Positions 16,128 through 38,580 of a stretch of DNA of 64,000 bases are shown here, piece by piece. The first letter of the stretch is position 1; the number at the start of each line of letters is the position of its first letter. The notes beneath the pieces were generated by a model that made no database searches, had not been told where the DNA came from, and saw only the letters and a program-made list of their open reading frames with translations. The translations under genes were made by a program, and so were the position numbers. This DNA comes from a virus, in IMG/VR virus record IMGVR_UViG_3300047550_003584, positions 1 to 64,000 of that record; one strand, written 5' to 3'.

Positions 16128-16154
16128 CGGGGGCTGCGCATCCGTGTAACGCAG
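16128..16154 (+). promoter_or_regulatory. Pseudoknot-family element (variant copy)
   Basis: CGG..CTGCG-CAT-CCG-TGTAA-CGCAG, 22 nt before the first early ORF. Confidence 0.45.
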
Positions 16155-16424
16155 AGTACCACCGCATTCAACACCATGACAGACCGTATGCAGCGTTTTG
16201 AGACAGCAGCGGAAGCACTTGTCGCTGGCCGTAAGGTTAGCGTACCAGTTCGTGAGCTGCCACAAGGTAACGTGCAGGCTTGGCTAGCCGAGCTACGTAG
16301 TTACGTCATCTTTGGTCACACTGATCCAGGAGATGAAGTGACTTATCGAGTGTACGTTACCGTTAAGGAAGGCCGAGCAATTGCTCAGGCCAAGCTGACA
16401 TACATCGATTGAAGGTTACCTCTT

Positions 16425-16447
16425 CCCCTGGTGAAAGCCAGGGGTTT
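16425..16447 (+). terminator. GNRA-capped hairpin, possible terminator
   Basis: CCCCTGGT-GAAA-GCCAGGGG-TTT after the stop of 16176..16412. Confidence 0.5.
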
Positions 16448-16566
16448 ATGTAGCCCTCAATACCTGCTTCGTTGATACGAATTCGTATCGCGCGTGCGGG
16501 TTTTTGGGTATTCGCGGCACCGCTTCGCCAAGAACCGTTCTCGCGCAAGGGATCTCAGCGATTGCT

Positions 16567-16591
16567 CGTCAAGCTGGACGTTAAACGCAGC
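16567..16591 (+). promoter_or_regulatory. Pseudoknot-family element
   Basis: CGTC-AA-GCTG-GACG-TTAAACG-CAGC. Confidence 0.55.
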
Positions 16592-16616
16592 AGACAACTC
16601 GGCGGTTGGTCACGAC

Positions 16617-16650
16617 CTTGGCATCCACACTTCAGTGGTGTAAGACCAAG
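16617..16650 (+). promoter_or_regulatory. CAU/URUAAG internal-loop element
   Basis: CTTGG-CAT-CCAC(ACTTCA)GTGG-TGTAAGA-CCAAG. Confidence 0.6.
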
Positions 16651-16827
16651 CTCAACCTACGGAGTAACACCGTGACCATCAACCCCACCAAGCTGCTCTC
16701 TCGTGAAGAGGTTGGCGACAAGATCATGCTTGAGATCCTTGATCTCCTTGAGCATGGTCATAGCCAGACTCTCGGTGAGCAGCACCTCCAGGTCATTAAG
16801 TCCTACGTGGACGAGATGCTGGAGAAC

Positions 16828-16897
16828 AACTGATCCGTTAAAGCGGGTGACCAGGTGCAAACCCTGGTCCAGTTATTGCCCCCTGTGGAGATGGGCA
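16828..16897 (+). ncRNA. tRNA-minihelix-like intergenic element 1
   Basis: AACTG/CAGTT + CCG-TTAAAG-CGG + GACCAGG-TGCAAAC-CCTGGTC + ATTGCCC..GGGCA. Confidence 0.6.
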
Positions 16898-17195
16898 CCA
16901 CACACACGGAGAACACCCGTGATTGACCTGACTACTGGTTGGGTATCGCATCCTAATGTACCAGGTGGTTTCCACTTGGTTTACATCGATAGCCTCGTTG
17001 GCGAAATCTCTATCGTTACTGGACCCAAGGGTTCAGGACTGATGGCAGCCAACGATCCAGGTAATGAACCTACCTATGAGGTATGGTTTCCAGGTATGTG
17101 CGACCCGACCGGTTACCTGACTCTTGCCCAAGTGAAAGGCATAATCATGTTCATGCGTCAGCGTGAGCAACAACGCCTTGCTTGGCAAGATGAAG

Positions 17196-17263
17196 ACTGA
17201 GTCCGTATAAGCGGCATTGGCAGGTGCAAACCCTGCCTTCAGTATTGCCACAATCCAGTGGCA
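17196..17263 (+). ncRNA. tRNA-minihelix-like intergenic element 2
   Basis: ACTGAG/TTCAGT + CCG-TATAAG-CGG + GGCAGG-TGCAAAC-CCTGCC + ATTGCCAC..GTGGCA. Confidence 0.6.
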
Positions 17264-17439
17264 CCTACCTTATTCAACACCATGACTTACACCGTCATCA
17301 TCAAGCATCACGACGTATTCTCTCAGTCCTATCTCCAGGGCTGTGAGCAATCGTTTGATACTGAGCAGCAAGCTCAGGACTACATTCAAACATTTGAGGA
17401 TTGGGAACAAGATCTCCTGGAGATTGACTTCAATCCTTT

Positions 17440-17504
17440 CTGAGTAACAGGCGTGATGCCGGGGGATCGAATCCCCCACTCAGTATTGCCACAACTCAGT
17501 GGCA
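17440..17504 (+). ncRNA. tRNA-minihelix-like intergenic element 3
   Basis: CTGAGT/ACTCAG + GGC..GCC + GGGGG-ATCGAAT-CCCCC + ATTGCCAC..GTGGCA. Confidence 0.6.
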
Positions 17505-17716
17505 TTCACCTACACCACACCACCGTGATCAAAAGCGAATCCGTATTTGCATCTATCATCGTTACTGCATTTGGGCTAGGCATCCTTGCTGGCCCAGTCG
17601 CTGGGTACTTCATTGATCGGGCAACTGCCAAGCAATGCATCACCCATGACTGGCCTAAGGAGGCTAACCAAGTGCATCGTGATTGGTGCATTACCAACGG
17701 CTACAAGATCTAAGAC

Positions 17717-18887
17717 TCCTGCTCTGGGGACTACGGTCCCCTCAACAGGACTCAACATCCTGTATCCCACTGCTAACTCAACACCATGTCAATGATCAAG
17801 CACTGCACTGTCGTACTTTCCAACGGCAACGTCGTTGGGATGCATGCAAACGAAGCAGATGCAGAAATGCAAGCAATGGAGCTGGCATACGAATGGCGCA
17901 GACAATCTGACTGCGGCTCTGAAGTACCAGCGCCTAGGCTTGCCGTCCTGTCATTCAATGACTGGATGCAACTGCAGAAAGAGTTTGCATTCTGACTCCT
18001 GCACTTAACCCTTCCGTTGTGGTATGTATGTACTACGACGGTGGGTTTTCTGCAGGCAATCAAGCCTGCTATCCAACTCAACTCAGACCATGACTGCATT
18101 ACACATCCGCAAGAACATTGCAGCACTGCTGGTCAACACAGCTGCTGCTGTAGAGAATGCCAAGCTTCCTGACAAGGAGGCTGCTCGTACCAAGCTGCAT
18201 GACATCCGTTGTCGTGCAGCGGCACTCATGATGCCGAACGATATGGCATTCGTCATCACTCCCAAGAACAACATCTGATCCATGTCAAACAATCACTTCT
18301 TTGATTCCTGTGTGGCTATCATTCTTGGCACTAGCGTGGGCTTACTCGCTTCTGTTGGAGCGCAGAAGCTTCTCAACAGACACTACCAAGCAACGTGCCA
18401 TGACCGACCAGGACACAATTTGATCTACACCCAAGGATTCTTGGGTGATACGTACTACTGCATCAACAGTAAGTACATGAACTGATCTCTGCACTTAACC
18501 TTTCCGTCTTGATACGAATTCATATCGGACGGTAGGTTTTCTGCAGGGTTCTCCCTGCACTACACCACACGACACCACCAGGACTCAACCATGACTCCTA
18601 AAGCTGTTGAACAACTGCTGACCCAAGACGCACGTCTATTGGCTCGCAGAGACTCCCCTGCCATTGACCAAGAGATTGAAGAACAGCGTCAAGCTGCTCT
18701 CGATCTTTTCTTCCAATGGCAAGATGGGTTAGCCCAGTTTCAAGACCTAGTTCCCTTCGTTGCCATCGTGCAGCGTAAAGTAGATCTCAACCGGGATCTG
18801 CTGCGGTGGGAACGCAAGCAACTGGAACAAGACTGACTCTTGCACTGAGGGCCTCCGGGCCTTCTCTGCAGGACTCAACATCCTGCA
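17717..18887 (+). repeat. Four two-state stem elements (17717-17763, 17998-18069, 18487-18559, 18838-18887)
   Basis: CYTGC-[hairpin]-(TG)CAGG-loop-CCTG(C), each starting 1-3 nt after a stop codon. Confidence 0.65.
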
Positions 18888-19385
18888 CCTAATCTTTATC
18901 TCAATTTAACCAATGGCACTAACACTTACGCCACGTGAAATTTTTGATGCATTGCAACCTATCAATGCAAATTCAGATGCTTGTTACTTGGAATTTACAG
19001 GTGACATTGTTTATTTGCATTGGACCACAGATAAGGAGAACGCTCAAATGTATGTAGACAACATCTTTGAGTGTTTAGATATCAAACTCTATGGTCATTG
19101 GGTAGACATCTGCGGGCAACACGAACGTGGTACCCCAGTTACATTGCCTAATGCAGCTTTGTTTGATTGTCGTTATATCCTTGCAACCAACTGATATGAG
19201 GACAATCTACTCCATGGGCAAGGGCAAGTATATCCATTTGGATTCTTACGGTGAGTCTCATGAGACGCGCCGTTGGTCTATTGCCATTGCCACCTTCTCC
19301 CTCATCATCGCCACCATCACCGCTACAGCGTTGGTTGGCGTTGATATGACACAACTCAATCCTCAACCTATCCAGGGACAAATCA

Positions 19386-19733
19386 ATGAATCTCGCTGAA
19401 CACACTCAAGTCCTCGAAGCACGTATCAATGCTTTGATTGATAAGCTGCTCGAGAAGTACCACAAACAGTACGGAGAACTGGGCATCGAGTTTGACATTG
19501 TATGTGGCACTAAGTACTACAAGATCATTCAACGTAACATCAGACGTAACTGTCTTGGTGGCTACGAAGGCAGTGTCCATGCATTTGTCCACAGACAATC
19601 AGGTGCTGTCTACAAGCCTGCTTCGTGGAAAGCACCGGCCAAACACGTACGTTACAACTTGCTTGATGACGTATCATATGGGACCTGCCTACACAATGCC
19701 GACTGGGCAGGCAGCTATCTGTACATGAAATAG
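19386..19733 (+). CDS. Conserved phage hypothetical protein
   Basis: GxKYxKI...SVHAFV...GxVYKPASWKAPAKHVRYNL, a motif I recognise as common in aquatic phages. Confidence 0.7.
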   Translation: MNLAEHTQVLEARINALIDKLLEKYHKQYGELGIEFDIVCGTKYYKIIQRNIRRNCLGGYEGSVHAFVHRQSGAVYKPASWKAPAKHVRYNLLDDVSYGTCLHNADWAGSYLYMK

Positions 19734-19810
19734 CTACAATTCCCTGGGCATCCTCACGTAAGTGAGGTATAAGTCCCAGGGGTTACATCATTTCAACCCA
19801 ACATCTAACC

Positions 19811-20185
19811 ATGCGCAATCGCATCTCACTCGTCAAAGAAGATCGGATCTGGCATCTTAGGTGCCAGGGCTATGGCTACGAATCAATCGGCAGCATTGTC
19901 AACTGCAATCCTGGTTACATGACGATTATCTTACGTCGTGTAAGGCAGCGTCCACCGATTGAAGAAGATCCGATCAAACGAGGAAGAAGAACGAACTTCC
20001 TAAGTGATGCACAAGTAGATGACATTAGAGCACGCAAGGCCAAAGGCGAGACTTGTCATTCAATCTCCAAGGATTATGACTTAAGTGAGTCCGCCATCTG
20101 GAACATTGCAAACCATGTCACCTACAAAGAACCAGCTTATGACAGCGGTTATCATTACAACTTTAGTAATCGGCTAACACGCTGA
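19811..20185 (+). CDS. Helix-turn-helix protein (two HTH-like units)
   Basis: GYGYESIGSIV and LSDAQVDDIR..GET.HSISKDYDLSESAIWNI. Confidence 0.65.
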   Translation: MRNRISLVKEDRIWHLRCQGYGYESIGSIVNCNPGYMTIILRRVRQRPPIEEDPIKRGRRTNFLSDAQVDDIRARKAKGETCHSISKDYDLSESAIWNIANHVTYKEPAYDSGYHYNFSNRLTR

Positions 20186-21700
20186 TCAACCTGGGCATCC
20201 ACAATTGAGAACTCTTCTCAATAACGTGGTGTAAGTCCCTGGCTTACTGTCCATCTCACTCAACTCACACCATGAGAGACCCTAATTTCATTGACGAGCA
20301 ACGTAACGCTGATTTGCTTGATGCCATGGCTGATCTTGCGTACCAGCAGGAGCAAGCCATGCGTGAAGAATACGAACTCAACCCACCAGAACAGGAGACT
20401 TACGATGACCAAGCCTAAGTACACACTACGGCAAGCATGGGATGACGGTGACATCATCGTCATCCTGATCGCAATCATCTCAATTATCATCACGGAGTTT
20501 GCATCATGTCTTACATCTCAGAACTCAAGAAGTTCTACCCCAAGTCCTACAAAGTGCGTTACGCAGTCAACGCCTATAAGGTCCACAAGTACTTCGAACA
20601 CGAAGATCCAACGGTCATTGTTATCCACGAAGTCAGGCTCTGCTACGGCGGACCAGAGGAAGGTGGATGGTGGTACCACGCAGGAGACCCTGTCCTCAGC
20701 CACTGCATCTTTTCCAAGAAGCAGGCGATCCAAACCTTCATCCAGTACTTCGAAGAGTACGAGATCGAAGGGCAGCCGTCTCTTGGAGATACAACAACTC
20801 GATCCAACATCGAGCTTAGCTTCTCCAACGAGCTAGCTAAGGCGTATCCTGAGTCCCGTCCACACTATTGCTAAGCCATGCCAGCAACAACACTACCTGC
20901 ACTCAGCATCAATCAACGCAACCTCTACGCATACTTCCTGAATCACAGGAAGAAGTATGGGAATACACCATGTTTTGTACCTAAGCTTCCAGCGCAAAGC
21001 TCAAGGCTTGAGCAATATCTCCAGGCCTTGGTGCGACTGGAAGAATACGGATTGATACGTGTAGACAGAAGCAGTGATAACTACACAGCATGGATCATGC
21101 TTGCGCCTAAGAGCGCATGACGTAGGTATTTATACTTAATATTGTTTGCTATTGGAAAATAGCCAATACATGCCAATACTTCAGTCATAGCCTCACTCCT
21201 GGGCAGCACCGATGTAAGTACGGTGTATAAGTCCCAGGATTTACCTCAACCCAACTTCACATCAACTATGGAACAAGCTAAGAAGTATCCAGCAATTGAC
21301 TGGACCAAAAATGAGTACCATCAACTGCAGCTGGTAGTTGATGCACTCAAAGCCATTTGTGCTCGCGAAGATAAACGTCATCAAATGGACGAGCATCTCG
21401 ATCCACACATGCGTAACGTTATCGATGAAGTGATCGGTATGTTAAGCGATGAGCTTGACTACGATCCAACGCCTAACGAACCTGGTGAACCACCCATGAC
21501 AATGAATGAAATGCACAGCGCTGCATGGAAAGAACATCAGGAGATGCATCGGTAACAGCCGACCAGGGGGACTAGTACATAAGTACTTCCCCCCTCAAAC
21601 TCCCCCGTTGGAGCACCAGGGAATCCTTGGATTTATATAGGAAATACTTATGTCCCAATCCTTGACTTCTCTGGTATTTATATCTAATTAACCTTTGATC

Positions 21701-22204
21701 ATGACACACCTTCCATTGCCTTCACTTGATTGGCTTAAGCAATATCTTGCTGTTGATCCAAGTCAGCCTAGTGGTTTGATCTGGATCAAGAACTATGCCA
21801 ACAGGAAGGCGCAAACAATGGCAGGTTCCGTGAATACAAACGGATATTATCAAGTCAGAATCAAAGGTAAACTTTACCTAACTCATAGAATCATTTATTT
21901 TTTACTAAACGAGAGAGACCCAGCTGACCAGGTTGTTGATCATGTTTACTCCAAAGCTAATCATGTAGATGTTCGTTGCGCAAACTATGTTCAGAATTCT
22001 TTCAACTCTAAACATCAAGCGACTGTTACATCGAGTGATTACAAAGGAGTTACATGGGATCGCAACAAATGGAAGGCTCGTATTTCCTATGGAGGAATAA
22101 CTTATGACTTAGGAAGATTCGATGATGAAATCAAAGCTGCTCAAGCATATGACCTCAAAGCTGTCGAGCTTGATCCAGAGTTTGCATTTCTTAACTTTCC
22201 ATGA
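21701..22204 (+). CDS. HNH-AP2 homing endonuclease-like protein
   Basis: PSGLIW..AG..GYY..HRIIY..VDH, then AP2 segment SDYKGV.W...WKARI..LGRF.DE..AAQAYD. Confidence 0.8.
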   Translation: MTHLPLPSLDWLKQYLAVDPSQPSGLIWIKNYANRKAQTMAGSVNTNGYYQVRIKGKLYLTHRIIYFLLNERDPADQVVDHVYSKANHVDVRCANYVQNSFNSKHQATVTSSDYKGVTWDRNKWKARISYGGITYDLGRFDDEIKAAQAYDLKAVELDPEFAFLNFP

Positions 22205-22462
22205 GGGGCTTGCGCTCCCTGGTAGACTTACCTCGTTACTCAACTCATCTCAACTCATGACTGACAACACTCCTTGCATACCAGACTCCATGGATATGCA
22301 AAGACTTCAAGCTATGCAACTTGTTGCCAAGATGAAGGAATCTGCAGAGAGACATGGCATTGGATTCATTGGTGGATTCATCTCACCTAACGGTGAGAAG
22401 TTTGTAATGACCAACATGACAAACGATGATGACATCAATGCACTAATGCCGGAGGATCTCAA

Positions 22463-22702
22463 ATGACTCAACAACACCCTGTTGTTCCAACCAAATATCT
22501 ATTTGATGCTTGGCGTCAACAATACATAGAACATGAGAAAGACTTTAGTGAACTTCTTACTGAAGCTGCACAGTGGGGTGCAGATATTGAATTAGAAGAA
22601 TGCTGTGCATTATTCAAATCTAATTCGGTATGTGGCACCAAGTTCCAACGTGACTCTTCTGTGCGGGATCTACGCAATAAACGTAGACCGAAACCGAAGT
22701 AA
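22463..22702 (+). CDS. TQxHP/AAQWGAD family paralog
   Basis: MTQQHPVVP..AAQWGADIELEECC..RRPKPK. Confidence 0.65.
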   Translation: MTQQHPVVPTKYLFDAWRQQYIEHEKDFSELLTEAAQWGADIELEECCALFKSNSVCGTKFQRDSSVRDLRNKRRPKPK

Positions 22703-22769
22703 ACAACATTGACAGTATCAATTACTGGTACTGAAGATGAACTTGAACAACTCATTCGTAAACTCAAAG

Positions 22770-22967
22770 ATGACCGACAAATCTCCGTTAAATTTTGACA
22801 AGACTATTGCTGGATTCAACGTCACTGAAAAGGGCGTTCAATCGTACAGCAAATCGTTTCAACTTGGTCCGTTTCAACTCACACTCAATGCTCGTGAGTC
22901 TGGTGTCCGTGGATCAATCAGTATCCCTGGCACAGGATTAAGCAAACGAAACATTAAATTATTCTAA
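22770..22967 (+). CDS. DUF4236-like protein
   Basis: KSFQLGPFQLTL..SGVRGSISIPGTGLS. Confidence 0.55.
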   Translation: MTDKSPLNFDKTIAGFNVTEKGVQSYSKSFQLGPFQLTLNARESGVRGSISIPGTGLSKRNIKLF

Positions 22968-23648
22968 AGATCCTGGGCATCCTTACGGTGTAAGTCCCAG
23001 ATCCCGTCCACTTACTCAACTCAACTCATGTCTGCTTACGTCGAGAACCTTACCCTGTTTGATCGCATCAATCTTGCTGCCTGCGCACAACGCAGGGCAT
23101 CAGCAAATGTGTTGGATTCAACACGATTTAAAGGCGAGTTTGACACGGCACGTCTGTGGACTAAGTATCGCCTTGTCAAGACCACTACCTATTCCTACAT
23201 CGAGGACAACTAATGACAGTACTTGCTATTGAACACACATCATTTACTGAGACTCATGTCACAGTTACAGCAGTTGTTGACGAAATGCGCCTGCTCTATC
23301 GGGCAACTTACCTTGACCCTGAAGAGTGGGCTCCTGCATTGTGTCAAGCAACTATTGAACTGGATCCAGAGGAACCGATTCCTCTTGACGAAGATGGCTT
23401 CTGCAGTTATCTTGATCAGCTCGATCCTCAATGGGAATTACTAGACAAGGATGACATCGAATGATTGGATTCTCAATTGAATTCAAACGTTGGTACTTTG
23501 TACTACGTGGTCCTAAAGGTCGCGTCTATCTAGCTACTGGCTTTGCTAAGCACATGCCAGTATTTGTTAATAACCGTAGCATTCATCTTCATGATCTTAC
23601 TGATGATGATATGAGTTACGGCACTTATCGTTGCGACCTTTAGTTAAT

Positions 23649-23677
23649 CGTCCTGGACATGACGTTAAACTGTCCAG
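23649..23677 (+). promoter_or_regulatory. H-type pseudoknot element
   Basis: CGTC-C-TGGACA-T-GACG-TTAAAC-TGTCCA. Confidence 0.75.
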
Positions 23678-23696
23678 TTCAATTACATTTTGCCCA

Positions 23697-23996: not shown

Positions 23997-24001
23997 TCAA
24001 C

Positions 24002-24029
24002 CGTCCTGGACATGACGTTAAACTGTCCA
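24002..24029 (+). promoter_or_regulatory. H-type pseudoknot element (identical to the 23649 copy)
   Basis: CGTCCTGGACATGACGTTAAACTGTCCA. Confidence 0.75.
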
Positions 24030-24056
24030 TTCCACCACACACCACCACACCATGCA

Positions 24057-24599
24057 ATGAAACCTAGGCCACTTCCACCTGTTGACTACTTGCAACAAAT
24101 GTTTTATCTAGATACAACATCTCCTAGTGGTTTACGTTGGCTTAAAGCGCCAAGTGCCTGGACCAAAGCTAACTCTGTTGCAGGTGTTCAACGTACTAAA
24201 GATCATTACTGGCGTGTTCGCTGGAAGTATCAAGGTAAAGCGGTGGATTACATGGCTCATCGGATTGTGTATGCACTACAACATGGCTCTGATCCAGGGG
24301 ATATGTTCGTAGATCATATACACAATGACAAAGACAACAACAAACCATTGCGATTGGCTACTAAATTACAAAACTCACATAATCGTAACGGTCGCAAAAA
24401 CACAAGCAGCATTTACAAAGGTGTCTGTTTAATTAAAGCGACTGGTCGATGGCGTGCATCCATTCGTGTTGATAAACAATTCAAACACATTGGTGTGTAC
24501 GCAACACAAGAAGAAGCAGCCTTGGCTTACAACCAAGCTGCTTTGCTAAACTTTGGTGAGTTTGCTCGCCTTAATCAAATCAATTCAACCGAGAACTAA
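24057..24599 (+). CDS. HNH-AP2 homing endonuclease
   Basis: AHRIVY..VDHIH.DKDNN..LRLAT..QN plus an AP2 domain. Confidence 0.85.
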   Translation: MKPRPLPPVDYLQQMFYLDTTSPSGLRWLKAPSAWTKANSVAGVQRTKDHYWRVRWKYQGKAVDYMAHRIVYALQHGSDPGDMFVDHIHNDKDNNKPLRLATKLQNSHNRNGRKNTSSIYKGVCLIKATGRWRASIRVDKQFKHIGVYATQEEAALAYNQAALLNFGEFARLNQINSTEN

Positions 24600-24601
24600 T
24601 C

Positions 24602-26389: not shown

Positions 26390-26611
26390 ATGACTGACTA
26401 CACCGACGATCAGCTACTTGCCATGGCTATGGCCAACATTGGTGAGTACATCACGGACAACTCACCACAGTACATCTTGATTGAAGAAGATCCTCGCAAT
26501 GAGGATGATTACGATAGCTGGACTTACGGAATGGAAGTCCTACCTCAAGACCACACTTGGCAGTCAGATTCAATTGACGTAAGTCCAAGTGATGCAGACA
26601 TGGCGGAATAG
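26390..26611 (+). CDS. Small acidic hypothetical protein overlapping tRNA-Leu
   Basis: 73 aa; stop codon TAG lies in the tRNA D-loop. Confidence 0.55.
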   Translation: MTDYTDDQLLAMAMANIGEYITDNSPQYILIEEDPRNEDDYDSWTYGMEVLPQDHTWQSDSIDVSPSDADMAE

Positions 26612-26679
26612 GTAGACGCAACGGACTTAAAATCCGTAGGCCATTGGCCGTGAGAGTTCAAGTCTCTCTGTCTGTACCA
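26594..26679 (+). tRNA. trnL: tRNA-Leu(UAA) with encoded CCA
   Basis: Acceptor GCAGACA/TGTCTGT, D-arm GCGGAATAGGTAGACGC, anticodon arm ACGGA-CTTAAAA-TCCGT, long variable arm GGCC-ATT-GGCC, T-arm GAGAG-TTCAAGT-CTCTC, then ACCA. Confidence 0.95.
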
Positions 26680-26700
26680 ACCCACAATCAATTCAAAACC

Positions 26701-29302: not shown

Positions 29303-29321
29303 TGAACTTAAGCAGTGGCGA

Positions 29322-29587: not shown

Positions 29588-29594
29588 GGGTTCT

Positions 29595-29618
29595 GTATCT
29601 ATTGATACGGAAAGTATA
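29595..29618 (-). promoter_or_regulatory. -10 element with a downstream NtcA-type box
   Basis: TATACT-TTCC-GTATCAATAGATAC (GTA-N8-TAC, extended palindrome) 7 nt before the ATG. Confidence 0.55.
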
Positions 29619-30505: not shown

Positions 30506-30519
30506 TCACCTTCTTTAAT

Positions 30520-30547
30520 GGACCTGAGTATGTCCCTAAACTACTCA
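30520..30547 (+). promoter_or_regulatory. H-type pseudoknot element (compensated variant)
   Basis: GGAC-C-TGAGTA-T-GTCC-CTAAAC-TACTCA. Confidence 0.75.
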
Positions 30548-30582
30548 TTAGTTTTTCTTATCATTCACTTCAACTCAACACC

Positions 30583-31347
30583 ATGAAACTCCTCAAGTTT
30601 TCCACCGGCAATGGCAAGCTCAAGAATCGTTTGATCTTCAATTTGCCTGCTGGGTACGCATGCCCTCACGCTGGTGTGTGCAAGACCTTTGCTGATCGCA
30701 CCACAGGGCAGATCACTGACTTGCCTCAGTACACAGGCGTGACGGCAACACAGGACTTCCGTTGCTTTGCTGCCATGGCAGAGACACGTCCTGCCGTACG
30801 GGAAGCACGTTGGTACAACTGGGATCTGTTGCGTGAAACTATTCACATGAATGGGAACCAGGCTGTGCTATTGCGTGACCTGATCGACCTATCGCTCTTG
30901 ATGCAACCAGTTAAAGAGTTGATTCGCATCCATGAGTCTGGTGACTTCTGGACTGAGAATTACATGCGAGCTTGGATCATGGTGGCCCAAGGTCGGCCGC
31001 AACAAAAGTTTTACGCATACACCAAGTCTCTTGGCATGTGGTACAACTTGCGTGATATGATCCCATTCAATTTCTATCTCACTGCATCGCACGGTGGCAC
31101 ACTCGACTACTTGATCGATAAGTATCCTGAGGTGTACCAGCGGGTTGCTTATGTTGTGTACACAGAAGAGGAAGCAGCAGAGCGTGGATTGCCCATTGAT
31201 CACAGCGACAGTCATTGTTTAGGTGACAAACCGTTTGCGCTTTTGGTCCATGGATCCCAACGTGCTGGTTCTGATGCCATGGCTGCTATCACACAACGCA
31301 AGAAAGAAGGCAAGTTTGTAGGGTATAGCAAGAAGAATCGGGAATAA
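30583..31347 (+). CDS. GP88-family protein
   Basis: GNGKL..FNLPAG.ACP.AG.C..CFA..IRIHESGDF..FYAYTK. Confidence 0.75.
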   Translation: MKLLKFSTGNGKLKNRLIFNLPAGYACPHAGVCKTFADRTTGQITDLPQYTGVTATQDFRCFAAMAETRPAVREARWYNWDLLRETIHMNGNQAVLLRDLIDLSLLMQPVKELIRIHESGDFWTENYMRAWIMVAQGRPQQKFYAYTKSLGMWYNLRDMIPFNFYLTASHGGTLDYLIDKYPEVYQRVAYVVYTEEEAAERGLPIDHSDSHCLGDKPFALLVHGSQRAGSDAMAAITQRKKEGKFVGYSKKNRE

Positions 31348-31620
31348 TTCCGTAAGCACTTGCGGATCAGGTGAAATCAGATATCATCTATCTGTCTTTC
31401 ATCTGATCCATGTCTTACGTAATTGCTTGTTGGCAATGGGGCAAAGCCCATGCCATCACTGCTAATAGTGAAACCAATAAGTTTGAGTTGATTCCACTAG
31501 ACTCTGATGTAGCTTTAAACAAGATCTTGTCGCTTCCGTATCGTGCGGGTGCACAGCAAATCTTGAAGTGGATCAACAGTAACGATGAAGACCTTGCCTG
31601 TAAAGAACTCTCAATTCAAG

Positions 31621-33444
31621 ATGAAGCCCGCTTCCGTAAGTGATAAGTTCTACGTCTTTGACTTGGAATCTGATGGTCTTTATGACAAGGTTACTAAGAT
31701 CCACTGCATTGTCATCCATGACATCACCGGCCAACAAACTTTTAGCTATGGGCCTGATCGCATTGCTGATGCTATTGCTCATCTGGCAACCGCTGATGTT
31801 TTGATAGGTCATAACCTGCTTTTTTTCGACATTCCTGTTCTGCAAAAGTTGCATTCATTTGACTGCAAAACACGCATCATTGACACACTCATCTGTACAC
31901 GATTGATCTGGCCCAAGGAAAAACTCTATGACCTTGACATTGAACAATATCCGCAGGTTCCACCGAACCAGCGAGGTGCCGCATCACTTAAGGCCTGGGG
32001 ATGGAGGTTGGCCGATCATAAGATCAGCTTCAAAGACTTCTCCACATATTCTCAGGAGATGTTGGACTACTGTATCCAAGACGTTGCAGTTACTACAAAA
32101 CTCTGGGAGCATATCACCAAACAGAACTATCCAGAGCCAGCGCTCAAGCTTGAACACGACTTTGCTTTGGCGATTAACAAACAAATTAGAGCAGGCGTTC
32201 CTTTTGATGTGGATGCAGCTCTTGATCTTGTGGATGATCTCCGAGCAAAAGAAGCACAACTTGAGCCACAGCTAAAGGAAATCTTTCCTCCAATCAAACA
32301 CAGCACATGGTTTACCCCTAAGGTAAACAACACCAAACGTGGTTATGTCAAAGGAGTTCCATTTGAAAAAATACGATACGAAGAATTCAATCCTGGATCT
32401 CGTGACCAAATTGCTGATCGCCTTAAGAGTAAGTACGGATGGCAACCAGAAAAATTTACTGCGAAAGGAAATCCAGTCGTTGATGATGAAGTGTTAGAGC
32501 AGTTGCCTTATCCGGAGGCAAAAGCTTTGGCAGAATACATGCTTGTCAAGAAACGTCTTGGACAAATTGTTAATGGCAACAATGCTTGGCTCAAGTTGGT
32601 TAATAATGACAGCGGTCGCATGCACGGTGACGTTGTTACTAATGGTTGTATCACTGGTCGTTGTTCTCACCGATACCCAAATATGGGTCAAGTTCCAGCG
32701 GGGTATTCGCCATACGGTAAAGAATGCCGTGCATTATTTCATGCACCGCAAGGGTGGGACATGATTGGCATTGACGCCAAAGCATTGGAGCTACGTTGTT
32801 TGGCTGGTTACCTTGCTTATTGGGACCAGGGGGAATATGCGCGTATCGTAACAAATCCTGAGATTGACATCCATGTGTATAACCAGGAACGTTTTGGTGT
32901 AGAGACTCGTGATATAAGTAAGAGGTTGCTGTACGCTGTATTATATGGCGCCGGCAATCTCAAAGCTGGTACCATTATTAACCCGAAGGAAAAAGATGAC
33001 GAAGTTCTCCGTCAACTAGGAAGAACTGCAATCAATTCATTCATGAAAGGTGTACCAGCTCTTAAATCACTCAAGGAAAAGATTGATGAAAACATTGGAT
33101 CCAGGGGTTATCTCATTGGGCTTGATCGTCGTATTTTATATTGTCGCTCAGCTTTCAAAGGACTGAATGTTCTATTGCAATCAGCAGGTGCAATCCTGAT
33201 GAAGCAAGTTGTTATTAACATTCACAACAACATTGAACAAAACCTTGGCTTGACCCACGGCAAGGATTGGGAGCAAGTCCTTATGGTTCATGACGAAGTG
33301 CAACTGGTTTGTAACCCACAGCACACGGAGCGCATCCGTGACCAGGCCATGGCAGCTTTCCCGCAAGCTCAGAAATTCTTTGGGTTCCAATGCGAAATTG
33401 AAGGCGACTCTCGTGTAGGATCCTCGTGGGCTGAAACGCACTAG
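31621..33444 (+). CDS. polA: Family A DNA polymerase (T7-like) with 3'-5' exonuclease
   Basis: ExoI FDLESDG, ExoII GHN..FD, ExoIII YCIQD, motif A DAKALELR, motif B KRLLYAVLYG, motif C VHDE. Confidence 0.95.
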   Translation: MKPASVSDKFYVFDLESDGLYDKVTKIHCIVIHDITGQQTFSYGPDRIADAIAHLATADVLIGHNLLFFDIPVLQKLHSFDCKTRIIDTLICTRLIWPKEKLYDLDIEQYPQVPPNQRGAASLKAWGWRLADHKISFKDFSTYSQEMLDYCIQDVAVTTKLWEHITKQNYPEPALKLEHDFALAINKQIRAGVPFDVDAALDLVDDLRAKEAQLEPQLKEIFPPIKHSTWFTPKVNNTKRGYVKGVPFEKIRYEEFNPGSRDQIADRLKSKYGWQPEKFTAKGNPVVDDEVLEQLPYPEAKALAEYMLVKKRLGQIVNGNNAWLKLVNNDSGRMHGDVVTNGCITGRCSHRYPNMGQVPAGYSPYGKECRALFHAPQGWDMIGIDAKALELRCLAGYLAYWDQGEYARIVTNPEIDIHVYNQERFGVETRDISKRLLYAVLYGAGNLKAGTIINPKEKDDEVLRQLGRTAINSFMKGVPALKSLKEKIDENIGSRGYLIGLDRRILYCRSAFKGLNVLLQSAGAILMKQVVINIHNNIEQNLGLTHGKDWEQVLMVHDEVQLVCNPQHTERIRDQAMAAFPQAQKFFGFQCEIEGDSRVGSSWAETH

Positions 33445-33628
33445 TTATGAAACTCAACAAAGAGAACTCTGGTGTAGTTGCAAAAGCAATTGCATCTGCC
33501 ATTATTGGCATTGTAATTTGGTGCGGTCTTAAATACGCATTTAATTTCACTTGGTTTCAAAGCTTTATGCTTGCTTGGTTGTATTGCATTCTTAGAGATT
33601 CAGTTATTCATTCCAAAGAATAAAGTTA

Positions 33629-33655
33629 CGTCCTAAGCATGACGTTAAACTGCTT
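33629..33655 (+). promoter_or_regulatory. H-type pseudoknot element upstream of ssb
   Basis: CGTC-CT-AAGCA-T-GACG-TTAAAC-TGCTT. Confidence 0.75.
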
Positions 33656-33676
33656 TAACACAACCCTTTTGATCCG

Positions 33677-34492
33677 ATGAATTACGTTGATGTTTGCGCA
33701 ATCCTGAACGAGAATCCTCGTCAGGTGTACACCAGTTCAACCACATTCAACTACTGCGCTGAAGTAACACTTCCGCCAGTTGGCAACAAAGCACCCACTA
33801 TCCTTGTACTCAATGTTTACGGGAAAACCGGAGATGCTTTCCGATCCCTCAACAAAGGAGATCGGGTGTACATTCACGGCTCCAAGCTACGGTTTGATCT
33901 CGAATCAAAAACGTACTCGCTCAATGGAGGAGTTGTTGCTCAAGTTACTGAAGCATTCCCTGTCTTCAACGACGTCATCTTGACGGGACGTTGCATCAAA
34001 GACATTGATCAAACAGATGCACGTGCTTTCAAGACAACCGCAGATGGTTTGATGATTGCCAATCAAACACTCTCGGTAAACACTGGGCGCAACCAAGCTG
34101 ATCTCTTTAACTTCTACGCAATTAACACGGCACAAGATAAGTTCAACCAAGCTGAACTTCTTGTGAACATGACGCGCAAAGGCACTGGTCTTACGATTCG
34201 TGCCAGGATTGTGACCGATGCCTGGACCGATAAAGAGTCCAATCAACGGCGCAGCGTCACCAAGTTGCAGCTTGTGCAGATGACACTGGCTCCCAAAACA
34301 AATGAGTCTCAGCCGAAACAAGTGACATCCCAAACAACTGTGGCATCCACAGAGAATGTTGCTAGCCTATGGGGCGGCAAGACCGTTGAGGAGTCCAGCG
34401 ATCCCTGGAATGCAGGCCCCAACACTGGGCTGCCTGATCTCCCCGGTCAATACGGCAACGCACCTGAATTCAACGACGAAGTTCCATTCTGA
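33677..34492 (+). CDS. ssb: Single-stranded DNA-binding protein (tandem OB folds)
   Basis: Two SSB-like units (MN.V...KGDRVYI.G; NDVILTGR...KGTGLTI.ARI.TDAWTDK) and acidic tail NDEVPF. Confidence 0.8.
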   Translation: MNYVDVCAILNENPRQVYTSSTTFNYCAEVTLPPVGNKAPTILVLNVYGKTGDAFRSLNKGDRVYIHGSKLRFDLESKTYSLNGGVVAQVTEAFPVFNDVILTGRCIKDIDQTDARAFKTTADGLMIANQTLSVNTGRNQADLFNFYAINTAQDKFNQAELLVNMTRKGTGLTIRARIVTDAWTDKESNQRRSVTKLQLVQMTLAPKTNESQPKQVTSQTTVASTENVASLWGGKTVEESSDPWNAGPNTGLPDLPGQYGNAPEFNDEVPF

Positions 34493-34751
34493 TGTCAACT
34501 CAACCTGAAGATCAGTTCACTCTCCTTTATGAGGATGGTAAACGAAAAGTTCTGCATGAGTTCCAGTGCATTGGCACTGATGAAATTGTTGATGAGTTCA
34601 TTAATTTCATGCGTGGTGTTGGGCATCTTGAGCTAAACATCATCGAGCGAATGTACGAAATCTCAAAGCAGTATCTTGCTTTGTACCAAGGGGAGCCAGC
34701 TATTCAGTTACCTCTCCAACAAGATGATCTTGAGAAAGTAGCTTAACTTCC

Positions 34752-34778
34752 CGTCCTCTGGTACGACGTTAAACTGCC
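34752..34778 (+). promoter_or_regulatory. H-type pseudoknot element
   Basis: CGTC-CTCT-GGTA-C-GACG-TTAAAC-TGCC. Confidence 0.65.
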
Positions 34779-34800
34779 TGTCCTTGACTACGAACTAACC

Positions 34801-35820
34801 ATGACTGCTTCAATGACTACTAAGAAAACCTCTGCACTTGCAACACGTGGGCTGGATTCCTTCAAACTTTTCCAAGATAAAAAGTTTGTATCCGGATACC
34901 AGAATCTTGTCACCATCCAACCTCTCAACAAGTCCAAGATCCGAGGTTGGTTCGTGCGGAAGTCAGACCTTGATGCTTGTGGATGGAACGCCACTGAAGA
35001 TCAATTTGCTAAGGGTTCAGTTATCTGGGACTACAAGCAAACTTTTGGTATGGCTCCCAACACTTCAATTGAAGAAGGACTCAATTTCATTGAGCCTCGT
35101 TTGCAAATCCTTTTGCGTTCTCCCCTCATGGTTGAGGAAACCACAGGGATGAGACAGACGATTGGAACCTTTGAGGATCCAGATGTCAAAGAAATGTTTG
35201 ATAACGACAAGGTTGCCGCTGATCTTGCCAACAGCAAAGGCGAGATGTATAAGCGTAAGTACAGTGTACGTACAAAGTACCTGGTCTACGTCTTGACCCA
35301 GGACAACAAACGTGCTCACAAGATTCCCATGGTGCTTACGCTCAAGGGTCTTAACGGCACCGACGTCAGCGACAAGGTCAAACTGTATGAAAAGGAAATG
35401 TCTAAGTGCTTGAGCAAAGCACTGGACTCTGAGGTACCTTTGGCATTCAACGAAAAGTTTTATGCCACCACAGTGTTTGCTCCCGTACTTGCCAACGAGA
35501 TGCGTGGTGCAAACAATGTAGAGATTTGTGCTATCGAATCGTTTGAGATTCCTGATTACAGCTCTCAAGATGAAGCGATTACTTCGCTGAATCGCCTCAG
35601 CATTCCCGATGAAGATCGTGAATCAACCTGGAAGTTCCAGGAGATGTTCAGTGATTACATCAATCAACATGCACGACAAGATGCACAAAAGCTCGGTGGT
35701 GCATACGGAATCAAAGAAGGAGTTGAGATCCTGCCTGTCTCTCGGACTACGGATACAGTTGATGTCAAGGCATTACCTGCTCGTGATCCCCTGACTGGTG
35801 AGGATGCAGATCTGAGCTGA
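34801..35820 (+). CDS. Conserved cyanobacterial/phage protein (DUF5895-like), possibly in recombination
   Basis: 339 aa with PRLQILLRSPL and YLVYVL..DNK..H.IP..LT.KG; family assignment from memory. Confidence 0.5.
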   Translation: MTASMTTKKTSALATRGLDSFKLFQDKKFVSGYQNLVTIQPLNKSKIRGWFVRKSDLDACGWNATEDQFAKGSVIWDYKQTFGMAPNTSIEEGLNFIEPRLQILLRSPLMVEETTGMRQTIGTFEDPDVKEMFDNDKVAADLANSKGEMYKRKYSVRTKYLVYVLTQDNKRAHKIPMVLTLKGLNGTDVSDKVKLYEKEMSKCLSKALDSEVPLAFNEKFYATTVFAPVLANEMRGANNVEICAIESFEIPDYSSQDEAITSLNRLSIPDEDRESTWKFQEMFSDYINQHARQDAQKLGGAYGIKEGVEILPVSRTTDTVDVKALPARDPLTGEDADLS

Positions 35821-36275
35821 TGACTAAAGCAAACACGTCTGTTGATTTGCTTGGAATGATTGACCCCTCCGGGGGTCTTTATTCCTGTTGGCCTTACATT
35901 GGTCGACGATGGCATCGAGATGGCTATGGTTATCCAAAGCGTAACCAAAAAGCAATTCTTGCTCATCGTTGGAGCTACGAGCATCATTACGATGTTGAGT
36001 TAACTCCTAAGATTGTTATCCGACACAAATGTGATAACCCTGCATGTTGTAATCCTTTACATCTAATGCCTGGTTCTCAAGCCGACAACATCAATGACAT
36101 GCATCAAAGAAAGCGCTGGAAGCCTGGGAGGCATCCTTTAACTTTAAATGAAAAGACTATTTGTCAAATCATTGAGTTAAGAAAACAGGGTTTATCGCAA
36201 GACAAAATTGCCAAGATTGTTGGTTGCTCTCAGCCAACAGTTGGTAAATACCTTTTGTTTTGCGACAGCCTGTGA
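35820..36275 (+). CDS. HNH endonuclease with C-terminal HTH
   Basis: AHRWSY..IRHKCDNPACCNPLHL..GSQADN; GLSQDKIAKIVGCSQPTV. Confidence 0.85.
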   Translation: MTKANTSVDLLGMIDPSGGLYSCWPYIGRRWHRDGYGYPKRNQKAILAHRWSYEHHYDVELTPKIVIRHKCDNPACCNPLHLMPGSQADNINDMHQRKRWKPGRHPLTLNEKTICQIIELRKQGLSQDKIAKIVGCSQPTVGKYLLFCDSL

Positions 36276-36795
36276 TTAATCGTTGATAGCTGGGAGCTTA
36301 TGAGAGTAATTATCTTTCATAAGCTCCATTGCATCAGCAACTAATCCTTTGATTGCAATCTGACGCTGCGTGGCAATCTTGGTTAACAAGGTTGCCATTT
36401 CCTTTAGCTCACTCATTGAACTGCAATCATTAATGCTACGTATCATCTTCTCTTGCCAGAACATATCCTCTGGCGACATTTCAAATTTCAACATGTTATT
36501 CAATTGGTTCAGTTTATTCTACGCCTTCATTTAAACTTGACTTGATTCCACTGAATGTGTTAAGGATTACCAAATGAAACCTGAAGACAAAGCCGCACTC
36601 AAGGTTGGTGGTGCCACGGCTCTCATCGTTGGTACCATTGCGTTTTGCGCACCAAACCCTGCTGCTTGGGCCGCTGTGATCTGGGGATCGTATAAGATGG
36701 GCAAGCAGGCCAGGGATCGAGAGATTGACCGGCAAGCCAAAAGACGTTGGTCAACTGACCAAGATCACTGCATCTAACACCACACCATTCAACTC

Positions 36796-37740
36796 ATGAC
36801 AACGCAACTTCAGCAACAAGAACTTAACGCTGCTCAGTCTCTGATCTACACACGTACTAACATTGGTCGTGCGTTCCAGGATTTTGATGACACCGAAATT
36901 GCTGGCATTTATCTGCGAGATGACAATTGTCTTGTGGTGCGTCGTGATGGTAGCGAGCAGGCTTACCCACGGGAGCTGATTAAGCTAGCCTTCACGAATT
37001 ACACCAACCGTCTCAAAGATTTCTTTTCTTACCTTGGCCCTAATTATCGTGGCCCTAGTGTATGGCACAACAATGCTTACGTATTGTTTAAGGGCTGGAA
37101 CTACACACACGCACTCGGACACCTGACTTCCAATGCAAAACTACAAGCTCACTGGGCAGACAAATTTATACACATATCAGACGTTGCCAAAATCACAACC
37201 ATCCTTCAGTCTGACCAAACGGACATTGGCCATTTGGTTGCGCCGGACGGGATGCGGCTTGCGAATCGGCCGATTGATATGGACTCTGAACTGGACGATG
37301 GCACCAAACAAGACTCGATGTTTGGCGAACCTACATGCTCATGTGGGTCCTTTCAACGTCAGCTCAGTAACCTATCTTTTTTCCAAGAAGAGATCCAGGG
37401 ATTTAAACCATGGTGCATCCACCTGAGTTGGTTTAACAAGTACCGTGAGCTGCTGTGCAAGCGCACAGATGCGCGTAACGCTAGTCCCAGTGGAACACCT
37501 GAGAAGTGTGTGGCATGGTTCTATGCACCGCCCAAAGACTCGGTCAGTGATGGACGTTTTGTTTTGTTGTATACCAACCAAGGGGCACAAGCTCCGCTGA
37601 CCCATTGGCGCAACTACAAACCTAACGAAGTGTTCACTCAACACCATGCATGGGATCTATTCTTCAATATGATGGATGCGTCCTATGTGCCATTCCCTGG
37701 CATTGCTTTACCTCAACTCAAGTCTGCTATCAAGAAATGA
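36796..37740 (+). CDS. SWIM zinc-finger protein
   Basis: TCSCGSF...PWCIHL (CxC-n-CxH). Confidence 0.6.
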   Translation: MTTQLQQQELNAAQSLIYTRTNIGRAFQDFDDTEIAGIYLRDDNCLVVRRDGSEQAYPRELIKLAFTNYTNRLKDFFSYLGPNYRGPSVWHNNAYVLFKGWNYTHALGHLTSNAKLQAHWADKFIHISDVAKITTILQSDQTDIGHLVAPDGMRLANRPIDMDSELDDGTKQDSMFGEPTCSCGSFQRQLSNLSFFQEEIQGFKPWCIHLSWFNKYRELLCKRTDARNASPSGTPEKCVAWFYAPPKDSVSDGRFVLLYTNQGAQAPLTHWRNYKPNEVFTQHHAWDLFFNMMDASYVPFPGIALPQLKSAIKK

Positions 37741-38552
37741 CTGACGACATTCTTGAATACGCACGTCAATTAGCTATGCGACCACGCAACGACACAATCA
37801 TGGGCGACAAACGTTATGATCTTGAGATTCCAGAGGACACTCATTGGGAGCTTGTAAAGCTAGCTGCAGACCTTAAAATGCACCACGAAGACTACGCACA
37901 AAACGTATTAATTGGTCATGTTGAATCTGAACTGGATCGAAAAGCTCAAGCTTGAATGTATTGATGAAGAAGATGGCACCATGTCCATCAACATTGAGTG
38001 GGATGAAAAAGATCCTGACCTTGACTACTGGACTTCTCTAGGTCCAGAAGGTCAAGAAGAATTTGTTCTCACTGCACTGCGTGAAGCCTGTGCCTCTTAC
38101 ACTGACACCGAATCTTTTGATGATCATGTCGATTGACACCTACGGCCTTAGTTCTGAGCAGTATACCGAGTTCTTCCATAAAAACTTGCGGTTTGCTGCC
38201 AAGCTTTACCTTGATACCTGCAACATCTTGAGCAGTGAAGGAGTCGGTAATATTGACTTCAAAACTGTCTCAGAGATGTACCAGGAAACTGTATACACAA
38301 CAAACGATGATTGTCGTCGTTACCAAAAGAGCAACAACCCTGAGGTATTGAAAGAAGTTACCGCTGATCTTTATGGTATTAGTCCCAGTAGGGAAGAGCT
38401 GATGGATGAGATTCAATCGCTTAGCGCCAAGGTGGAATCCCTTGTTGACTACATTGGTAACTTGGTCACTATCACTACGGCAGGCCTTGAGGGTATTGCC
38501 ACTACCCTTGATGACAAGGTAGACTGAGCACGCACAAACCCTGCAGAGTTGC

Positions 38553-38580
38553 CGTCCTGGTCATGACGTAAAACTGACCA
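38553..38580 (+). promoter_or_regulatory. H-type pseudoknot element
   Basis: CGTC-C-TGGTCA-T-GACG-TAAAAC-TGACCA; a TTGCCA-18-TAGACT promoter candidate lies just upstream (38496-38525). Confidence 0.75.

Follow-up and report, generated by a model that had tools for sequence, protein, structure and literature searches.

What are the structured RNA elements that recur in the intergenic spacers of a cyanophage transcript, and what do they do? The question is raised by a 64-kb stretch (the window) of the 76.8-kb IMG/VR virus record IMGVR_UViG_3300047550_003584. The nearest isolate is Synechococcus phage S-EIV1, whose family A DNA polymerase shares 69% identity with that of the window; judged by sequence, the window comes from an S-EIV1 relative, a lake cyanophage. 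Megablast with the plus-strand arm found no close relative among GenBank phages. The minus strand of the window carries virion genes, and on the plus-strand arm (~15.6-43.6 kb) numerous small early genes give way to genes for replication (ThyX, a GP88-like gene, DNA polymerase, SSB and DUF5895, assigned with Pfam). Four families of structured elements were found in the arm at 16.6-38.6 kb: a pseudoknot (PK, six copies), a bulged hairpin (IL, six copies), a three-way junction (C, three copies, the third weak) and a long hairpin with a duplicated partner strand (D, four copies).

By its core sequence PK is a bacterial-virus variant of coremin, an exoribonuclease-resistant RNA (xrRNA) motif. For the modules as a group we favour, tentatively, the reading that they would act as interchangeable 5'-proximal roadblocks shielding the downstream RNA. 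As far as the literature was searched, four interchangeable families punctuating one transcript are undescribed. The novelty for this phage group that a first-pass annotation of the window had claimed was thus upheld in the literature and the Rfam release searched, but not for the PK core, which is a described plant-virus motif.

Structure and conservation of the four families

The PK consensus, CGUC-CUGGNCA-U-GACG-UUAAAC-UGNCCA(G), describes a 28-nt H-type pseudoknot with a helical stack of ~11 bp. Its pairing was examined in a comparison set of S-EIV1 and 18 IMG/VR relatives, the latter retrieved via protein-anchored loci of a 578-aa gene. Among 48 unique copies every cell of stem 1 was paired, with CG, GC, UA and AU all occurring at one position. 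Stem 1 was CGUC/GACG in 33 of the 48 and compensated in the others (GGAC/GUCC, UGUC/GACA, AGUC/GACU), and its closing C-G pair was invariant. Stem 2 contained five covarying pairs, and the covariation score was reached by none of 500 shuffles. In a test selecting copies by sequence only, all matches to the anchor GTCCT-N4-ATGACGTTAAACT were taken whatever followed (104 unique copies); 400 of the 416 free stem-2 cells were paired, and G.U combinations outnumbered A.C by 71 to 5. This asymmetry indicated that the pairing forms on the sense strand, as RNA, and because the pairing is interleaved, duplex DNA cannot account for it. In the spacer UUAAACU the AAA and U19 were invariant and C18 was at least 90% conserved. 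Position 20, mostly G but A in the GGAC subtype, pairs with the loop in the phage form. The loop of the window copies was 8-9 nt long, C-U-N4-A-(U/C), with U as last base in five copies and C in the 34752 copy. A loose regular expression and a structure-only descriptor (340 versus 361 matches on the two strands) gave no discrimination without the sequence core.

Coremin, the motif with which the PK core was matched, is recognized by a short hairpin 1 (3-4 bp, (C)GUC/GAC(G), closed by a pyrimidine-purine pair), whose loop has the form YGAD (4 nt) or YGNNAD (6 nt), by a conserved spacer and, immediately behind it, by a second hairpin whose sequence is free. In the spacer, (G)UUAAACUAC, the residues A15-A17, C18, U19 and A20 are essential. 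Coremin stalls Xrn1 one base ahead of hairpin 1. The second hairpin is needed for Xrn1 resistance (PMC6546385, PMC10321173), and a U14A variant occurs naturally in plant viruses (PMC6546385).

Covariance models for PK (R1), C (R2) and IL (R3) were trained on the relatives plus the window copies and run over all 64 kb, both strands, with filters off. Because the window copies are within the training alignments, the informative result is the lack of further copies. R1 returned exactly six PK copies at 34-47 bits, the next best match scoring 13 bits, and R3 exactly six IL copies at 35-52 bits, followed by one of 14 bits; for both families the gap therefore extended from at least 34 to at most 14 bits. 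Every model match lay on the plus strand at 16.6-38.6 kb, and no further PK, IL or C copies were found elsewhere in the window, the minus-strand virion operons included. The elements thus proved to be real and far beyond chance, with the single orientation and the absence from the virion operons that the first-pass annotation had noticed. Its statement that most spacers at 16.1-24.1 kb hold an element was borne out as well (14 of 18 spacers longer than 25 nt, counted by reading the sequence). The counts had to be corrected. Instead of eight pseudoknots there are six of the main type plus a different small one at 16878-16902, and the internal loops, announced as five, are a genuine family by covariation with six members. 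The putative family pseudoknot at 16128 was reduced to a conserved hairpin of 5 bp that matches no model and has z +0.9.

Across ~20 related genomes covariation was strong for PK, IL and C, and for D the inner hairpin was supported; the proposal that pairing is kept while sequence changes was therefore sustained when the IMG/VR relatives were compared. In searches of Rfam release 15 only tRNAs passed the gathering threshold, and permissive scans of the arm and of single elements yielded noise or RF01106 at 14.9 bits (gathering score 38), so that no family match emerged.

The IL consensus is CCUGGG-CAU-[hairpin, 2 to ~20 bp]-U(G/A)UAAGU-CCCAGG. Among 36 unique copies compensatory change was seen at 10 of 12 pairs, in both stems, and the junction strands CAU and U(G/A)UAAGU were fixed. 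The apical loop varied in sequence and length (4-34 nt) and had no 3' partner, the conserved bases lying in the 3' bulge U(G/A)UAAGU. The smallest IL has only ~8 bp altogether. Two assignments were tried and dropped. In the xrRNA-LT class of Luteoviridae and Tombusviridae, J1/2 and L2B of the P1-P2 hairpin are conserved, the apical loop is paired to the 3' flank, and P1 is followed by a conserved A-G-Y; IL differs by its free apical loop and by having its conserved bases in the 3' bulge instead. Nor is IL a circular permutation of PK, whose strands are connected differently. For this widespread motif no described relative is known. At 26390-26611 (+) a conserved open reading frame (ORF) of 73 aa spans an IL plus 18 nt of tRNA-Leu, so that coding sequence, IL and tRNA overlap.

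In C the closing stem takes in the upstream stop codon; it is followed by an invariant CCG-UNNAAG-CGG mini-hairpin and a T-arm-like hairpin of 7 bp whose loop is UGCAAAC. In 50 unique copies 97.5% of the cells were paired and 11 of 15 pairs changed in a compensatory manner, the stop-codon closing stem included. Each copy is followed by AUUGCC plus a further hairpin or a small pseudoknot. The first-pass annotation had called the three C copies tRNA-minihelix mimics; all three are there, the third weakly (11.4 bits), but neither ARAGORN nor the Rfam tRNA model made a call, and the sequence past the closing stem is (A/U)AUUGCC, not NCCA. The small pseudoknot, which differs from PK, belongs to a family found after many C elements in the relatives, RCCY-N2-3-[4-5 nt]-AGAU-RGGY-A-[partner]. 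By eye, compensatory variants were seen in its first stem (GCCC/GGGC, ACCC/GGGU, GCCU/AGGC) and in its second (UGUGG/CCACA, GCGG/CCGC, GCCG/CGGC, GCAG/CUGC).

In D an outer stem, YCUGCA/UGCAGG, surrounds a variable hairpin, and a second CCUGC follows a few bases downstream. The upstream stop codon sits in the outer stem. About 50 homologous members kept the outer stem and both partner strands, the inner hairpin being free to change. The four elements described earlier as two-state stems are therefore confirmed as elements. Their switching is another matter: the predicted ground state is the long hairpin (z -3.7 to -5.5), and since the generic three-strand pattern occurs by chance ~1000 times per strand, two states are hypothetical. 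Copy 2 is the only D matching a terminator consensus scan, with the stem followed by UGGGUUUUCU; in the minimum free energy (MFE) fold the U-rich stretch of D lies within the longer hairpin.

Table 1. Structured elements of the plus-strand arm, in window coordinates
Element	Position	Strand	Evidence and remarks
PK copy 1	23649-23677	+	R1 44.5 bits; CGUC-CUGGACA-U-GACG-UUAAAC-UGUCCAG
PK copy 2	24002-24030	+	R1 46.7 bits; ahead of the HNH-AP2 gene preceding the 578-aa gene
PK copy 3	30520-30548	+	R1 37.3 bits; stem 1 GGAC/GUCC, spacer CUAAACUAC; before GP88-family gene (Pfam)
PK copy 4	33629-33657	+	R1 43.9 bits; before SSB gene (Pfam)
PK copy 5	34752-34781	+	R1 34.2 bits; loop 1 nt longer; before DUF5895 gene (Pfam)
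PK copy 6	38553-38581	+	R1 39.9 bits; spacer UAAAAC (U14A variant)
IL	16615-16653	+	R3 39 bits; compensated lower stem CUUGG/CCAAG
IL	19742-19782	+	R3 44.6 bits; CCUGGG-CAU-hairpin-UAUAAGU-CCCAGG
IL	20189-20244	+	R3 40.5 bits; long upper hairpin, one U.U mismatch in lower stem
IL	21197-21240	+	R3 51.8 bits; CAG instead of CAU
IL, minimal	22971-23003	+	R3 43.4 bits; upper hairpin only CC-UUAC-GG; orthologues in 17 genomes
IL	26554-26592	+	R3 35.4 bits; 2 nt ahead of tRNA-Leu (26594-26679, ARAGORN); overlaps 3' end of ORF 26390-26611
C copy 1	16827-16884	+	R2 82.8 bits, covariation, MFE; closing stem holds upstream UGA, then CCG-UUAAAG-CGG
C copy 2	17195-17253	+	R2 66.6 bits, MFE z -2.4; then hairpin GCCAC..GUGGC at 17247-17262
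C copy 3, divergent, weak	17440-17483	+	R2 only 11.4 bits; T-arm-like GGGGGAUCGAAUCCCCC; same three-way junction by MFE, z -3.5; then hairpin 17488-17503
Small second pseudoknot	16878-16902	+	GCCC..GGGC interleaved with UGUGG..CCACA; after C copy 1
D copy 1	17718-17763	+	z -3.7; subtype UCCUG / CAGGA / UCCUG
D copy 2	17998-18069	+	z -4.6; outer stem CCUGCA/UGCAGG, inner hairpin ending in GGGUUUUC, second CCUGC downstream
D copy 3	18488-18558	+	z -4.3; homologous members
D copy 4	18839-18886	+	z -5.5; homologous members
Small conserved hairpin	16134-16154	+	CUGCG-CAUCCGUGUAA-CGCAG; before the arm's second gene; copies in S-EIV1 and locus L198, one compensatory pair

Other features of the arm were noted in passing. 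Intrinsic-terminator-like hairpins with U runs stand after its first and second genes (15916-15942 and 16425-16449, both +), flanked by long A/T-rich spacers (15884-16175 and 16413-16672) that may hold early promoters. A two-tier hairpin at 21566-21594 (+), GGGGGA-CU-AGUAC-AUAA-GUACU-U-UCCCCC, has a counterpart in S-EIV1. It adjoins a near-consensus promoter-like sequence, TTGACT-17-TATATC (21662-21688, +), located before the first of two genes (21701-22204 and 24052-24599, +) whose translated sequences resemble homing endonucleases of the HNH-AP2 type. On the minus strand, tRNA-Pro and tRNA-Cys are encoded at 43900-44131.

Location, gene linkage and distribution

The modules keep fixed distances to the neighbouring genes. 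PK began 5 nt past the upstream stop codon in 39 of 81 cases and ended 19-22 nt ahead of the next start codon in 59 of 81; copy 1 of the window, for example, begins 5 nt past the stop codon and ends 20 nt ahead of the ATG. IL mostly began 3-11 nt past the stop codon and in about half of the cases ended 25-31 nt before the start codon. In 20 genomes all 83 PK copies lay on the coding strand. The 20-35 nt 3' of the window PKs are C/A-rich leaders without a hairpin, and most start codons in the arm are preceded by a C/A-rich leader of the type ..CUCAACUCAACACC-AUG, without a Shine-Dalgarno sequence.

When the genes flanking PK and IL were clustered, downstream gene families were found to keep the module while the upstream neighbour varied (12 cases with 11 different neighbours, 14 with 6, 10 with 7); upstream families were partnered by only one to three downstream families. 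Since the module stays with the downstream gene, PK and IL belong to the leader of the following gene. The 578-aa gene, which in the relatives has a PK directly upstream and no HNH-AP2 gene in between, provides a special case: in the window the second HNH-AP2 gene (24052-24599) seems to have taken over its PK leader.

At orthologous sites one module can replace another. Ahead of the gene beginning M(T/S)YPEINWKKNEY, 18 genomes have an IL but two have a PK; for the gene beginning MTQLDPNYNADLLD the split is 12 genomes with IL to two with PK. D copy 3 is followed by a gene (MTPKAVEQLLTQ..) whose S-EIV1 orthologue (MSPSSVEHLLTQ..) carries a PK there. This exchange of PK, IL and D at the same site argues for one function. 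Modules were also present directly before tRNA genes, in four independent contexts: the IL before tRNA-Leu in the window, an IL before tRNA-Asn, a PK whose end coincides with the start of tRNA-Arg (locus L203) and a hexaloop coremin 14 nt before tRNA-Lys. Such positions argue against a role in translation only.

Neither PK nor IL is confined to this phage group. An exact-pattern scan of IMG/VR located 115 stretches with the IL core and at least 116 with the PK core; among the matches listed, 123 of 225 new loci shared no protein with the window's genome. In the unrelated loci PK preceded scaffold genes of two Pfam families and a DNA polymerase gene, and IL a major capsid gene. Among bacterial genomes the PK core occurred in 66 stretches, with full stem-2 pairing in 65 of them. 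Most carriers were Bacillota, many Omnitrophota, some Planctomycetota and others. No enterobacteria were among the 66 matches, and the one match in a metagenome-assembled genome (MAG) of a gammaproteobacterium was judged to be due to chance. In Enterococcus a PK precedes a prophage scaffold gene. In Omnitrophota and Planctomycetota MAGs (L265, L296, L289, L254) PK is located ~20-30 nt before Rrf2-family regulator genes, which hints at a conserved leader element of cellular genomes.

Phage DNA also contains coremin in its canonical hexa- and heptaloop forms, CGNNAU loops among them; examples stand beside a PK (locus L210) and in Lactococcus phage phiL47. The phiL47 motif (L430, ~113289-113310, -) is of the heptaloop type and lies, together with a following hairpin, inside the annotated orf173; an ATG ~30 nt downstream of it suggests that the annotated start of orf173 may be too far upstream. 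In the L224-type loci (~25 IMG/VR contigs, and the Ruminococcus MAGs L252 and L288) a PK is followed by a hairpin, by UAUAUAAGCU and then by a Phage_scaffold gene, an arrangement suggestive of PK in tandem with a UAUAAG segment of the IL or C kind. Short-query BLAST of PK against isolate phages, which is too insensitive for a host census, gave four matches; the single-stranded DNA microvirus MG945738.1 (Microviridae sp., H16), Nostoc phage NMeng1 (H18) and Moorella phage MTATph1 (H17) were among the phages matched.

Possible roles of the modules

In the favoured reading the long polycistronic transcript would be cut somewhere upstream of a module, and 5'-end-dependent decay, by RNase J where present or by RNase E entering from the 5' end, would be halted at the module. 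The stable message remaining would consist of the module, 20-30 nt of unstructured C/A-rich leader and the coding sequence. Between stop codon and PK there are 5 nt, a spacing like that of frameshift sites, which may let the terminating ribosome stop without melting the PK. IL, C and D would be other structural solutions to the task of PK; they are read in this way because they occupy the same position and PK is replaced at orthologous sites. Besides the coremin match, several observations point to roadblocks: PK and IL stay linked to the downstream gene, the families interchange, modules stand before highly expressed genes and tRNAs, and the carriers comprise mainly Bacillota besides cyanophages, without enterobacteria among the 66 bacterial matches. 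Xrn1 is stopped by coremin and by other xrRNAs, and according to a review xrRNAs block any 5'-to-3' exonuclease, bacterial RNase J1 too (PMC10520033, PMC10321173, PMC8374639). Among the functions offered by the first-pass annotation, stabilization was thus strengthened by the coremin core, the downstream linkage, the interchange and the tRNA contexts. For antitermination of the put type and for promoter cassettes no indication emerged; G.U pairs far exceed A.C, and the interleaved pairing cannot form in duplex DNA.

Several observations weigh against the roadblock reading. The PK-IL-D interchange rests on three genes, and the roadblock role of IL, C and D is deduced from nothing but their position and interchange. 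The PK loop has U at position 2, where the 4- and 6-nt loops of coremin require G, and the window PKs lack the second hairpin on which Xrn1 resistance depends. RNase J scored above the cut-off in one of five non-Firmicute carrier genomes, the other four being incomplete MAGs; RNase J therefore cannot be the sole target, and the obvious substitute would be a 5'-entering RNase E. The Rrf2 context could indicate a regulatory role. Finally, a PK or IL abutting the 5' end of a tRNA would, once RNase P has cut, form the 3' terminus of the fragment upstream, which fits protection of 3' ends.

Such protection is the main rival. After a cut in the spacer or by RNase P, the module would form the 3' structure of the upstream cistron and block 3'-to-5' exonucleases, as intercistronic stem-loops do in bacterial operons. 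The closeness to stop codons (3-11 nt), the stop codon inside the closing stem of C and D, the very stable D hairpins (z -3.7 to -5.5) and the L203 PK that ends exactly at the start of tRNA-Arg would all be explained, but the gene-linkage result does not fit: PK and IL stay with the downstream gene as the upstream neighbour changes. Moreover, the spacing to the downstream start codon is as tight as that to the stop codon, and coremin and other xrRNAs are reported to block 5'-to-3' enzymes. On balance this explanation is unlikely, and those that remain are less likely still. The constant distance to the start codon (19-22 nt for PK, 25-31 nt for IL) would be expected if the modules controlled translation as protein or ribosome sites, whether as operators like those of T4 RegA or gene 32, as standby sites or as barriers to post-termination ribosomes sliding along the message. 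The leaders without a Shine-Dalgarno sequence, the PK before the SSB gene, as in T4 gene 32, and the conserved unpaired U-N-N-A-A segment of three families are in line with this. Coremin itself halts scanning ribosomes and drives -1 frameshifting in reticulocyte lysate (PMC10520033, PMC10321173), and a frameshift screen in E. coli gave coremin-related variants (PMC10520033, PMC10321173, PMC8374639). A factor specific to this phage group is ruled out by the occurrence of the motifs in hundreds of unrelated phages and in bacteria; the positions before tRNA genes, and an uncovered start codon ~20 nt beyond the end of PK, also speak against translational control, which we regard as improbable.

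For D and a few hairpins with U runs, intrinsic termination or attenuation might be considered, the duplicated strand serving as an anti-terminator switch set by upstream translation. Copy 2 is terminator-like, with UGGGUUUUCU after its stem, both partner strands are kept in the ~50 homologues, and a terminating ribosome would open the outer stem, which holds the stop codon. Yet the U-rich stretch of D lies inside the long hairpin, not after it, and the outer 3' strand is made only past the U run, too late to prevent termination; behind PK, IL and C there is no U run, and PK replaces D at an orthologous site. Such a role is decidedly improbable. A role at the DNA level, as phage or host promoters, operators or recombination joints like the promoter-stem-loop cassettes of T4-type phages, would agree with the conservation over 25-30 bp, the uniform orientation and the fixed distance to the following gene, with the rough ordering by class along the arm, with the identical PK copies 23649 and 24002 that bracket one ORF and with the variation of module type between orthologous sites. 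Interleaved pseudoknot covariation is, however, unreadable from duplex DNA, the excess of G.U over A.C (71 versus 5) places the pairing on the sense strand only, and the stems vary freely in sequence while complementarity is kept. A phage RNA polymerase was not found with Pfam (two large proteins), PHROGs (nine) or a PDB sequence search (the 1131-aa protein), and sigma-70-like promoter matches in the arm were rarer than in shuffles. Upstream of PKs in unrelated genomes strict TATAAT-like hexamers were not enriched, and TANNNT was enriched only at gaps of 0 and 3 nt, from which a start would fall inside the PK fold. Recombination at the repeats may occur, but as a by-product, and we give a DNA-level role very little credence.

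To our knowledge, exoribonuclease-resistant RNAs are known only from eukaryotic RNA viruses, and no report of coremin or any other xrRNA in phages or bacteria was found in the literature searched. A broader proposal, which we consider possible but rather doubtful, is that phages and some bacteria use protein-free RNA roadblocks, a prokaryotic counterpart of xrRNAs with several interchangeable architectures, to set where each stable message begins, and that the phage PK reveals the topology of coremin. If PK works like coremin, RNA roadblocks would be common across domains and each phage cistron would have its own decay shield. The more than 130 natural phage PK variants with compensatory changes offer a pairing scheme for the loop and the 3' flank, and thereby a clue to coremin. 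IL is equally widespread, stands before capsid genes and tRNAs and is in no catalogue. Protein-free stabilizing modules of 28-40 nt, if they are such, would be useful expression parts for cyanobacteria and Firmicutes. As S-EIV1 and Lactococcus phage phiL47 are in culture, the idea is directly testable.

Comparison with known systems

The RNase III sites of the T7 early transcript, to which the elements had been likened in the first-pass annotation, also occupy most spacers of a polycistronic RNA, and IL resembles them as a two-tier hairpin with a conserved internal loop. There is no sequence similarity, and RNase III needs about two helical turns. With IL going down to ~8 bp and a PK stack of ~11 bp, both are too short for this and the analogy fits poorly. 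C has a 7-bp hairpin, with the loop UGCAAAC (U-G-N-R-A, closed by G-C), stacked on a closing stem of 4-6 bp, and in length comes close to a tRNA minihelix, but it has neither a CCA end nor an anticodon arm. The 6-nt segment U-N-N-A-A-(C/G) that three families had been said to share is present, at the sequence level, in PK, IL and C. U-N-N-A-A recurs in PK (UUAAA-C), IL (U-G/A-UAA-G), the C mini-hairpin (U-N-N-AA-G) and, as UGCAA, the loop of the C hairpin. The T-loop consensus is U-N-N-R-A, and going by the letters we infer that the shared segment fits it. Kink-turn, loop E/sarcin-ricin, 11-nt tetraloop receptor, hammerhead, pistol, HDV-like and preQ1-I motifs were rejected by inspection, since defining bases were missing; for pistol and preQ1 there was no Rfam match either.

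Compact leader structures that govern a message from a 5'-proximal position are familiar. The T4/T2 gene 32 mRNA pseudoknot nucleates binding of the gene's own protein at a single gene, and the 5' stabilizers of Bacillus (phage SP82, ermC, aprE) act via bound ribosomes or plain hairpins. PK resembles them in kind, one copy preceding an SSB gene, but it is present in at least six copies per genome, before unrelated genes and tRNAs, and across phyla. Its only Rfam match, RF01106 (SBWMV1_UPD-PKb), is a pseudoknot of plant-virus 3' untranslated regions whose consensus contains CGUUAAACUGUAC; at 14.9 bits, far below the gathering score of 38, PK falls outside that family.

The closest relative is coremin, of which we know of no solved structure. 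The fold is suspected to be a pseudoknot, and a Watson-Crick variant has a stem 2 of 3 bp (PMC10321173). That variant, xrRNA-WCC (Dilweg 2023, PMC10321173), is like PK a canonical pseudoknot between the hairpin 1 loop and the spacer region, but its stem 2 is in another register (6-8 with 18-20) and hairpin 2 is still needed. PK departs from coremin itself in its 8-nt loop, CUGGNCAU, which is outside YGAD/YGNNAD, and in the bases from U19 on, which pair with the loop to form a Watson-Crick stem 2 of 5-6 bp in place of hairpin 2; its host, a double-stranded DNA phage of bacteria, belongs to a setting where Xrn1 does not exist. What the two have in common is the 4-bp stem 1, CGUC/GACG, the spacer UUAAACU(A/G), in agreement as far as U19 but mostly with G at position 20 of PK, the small size, a loop that begins with a pyrimidine and ends A-D (except in the 34752 copy with its final C), tolerance of U13C and U14A, and an intergenic, sometimes tandem location; the match spans GUCC..GACGUUAAACU.

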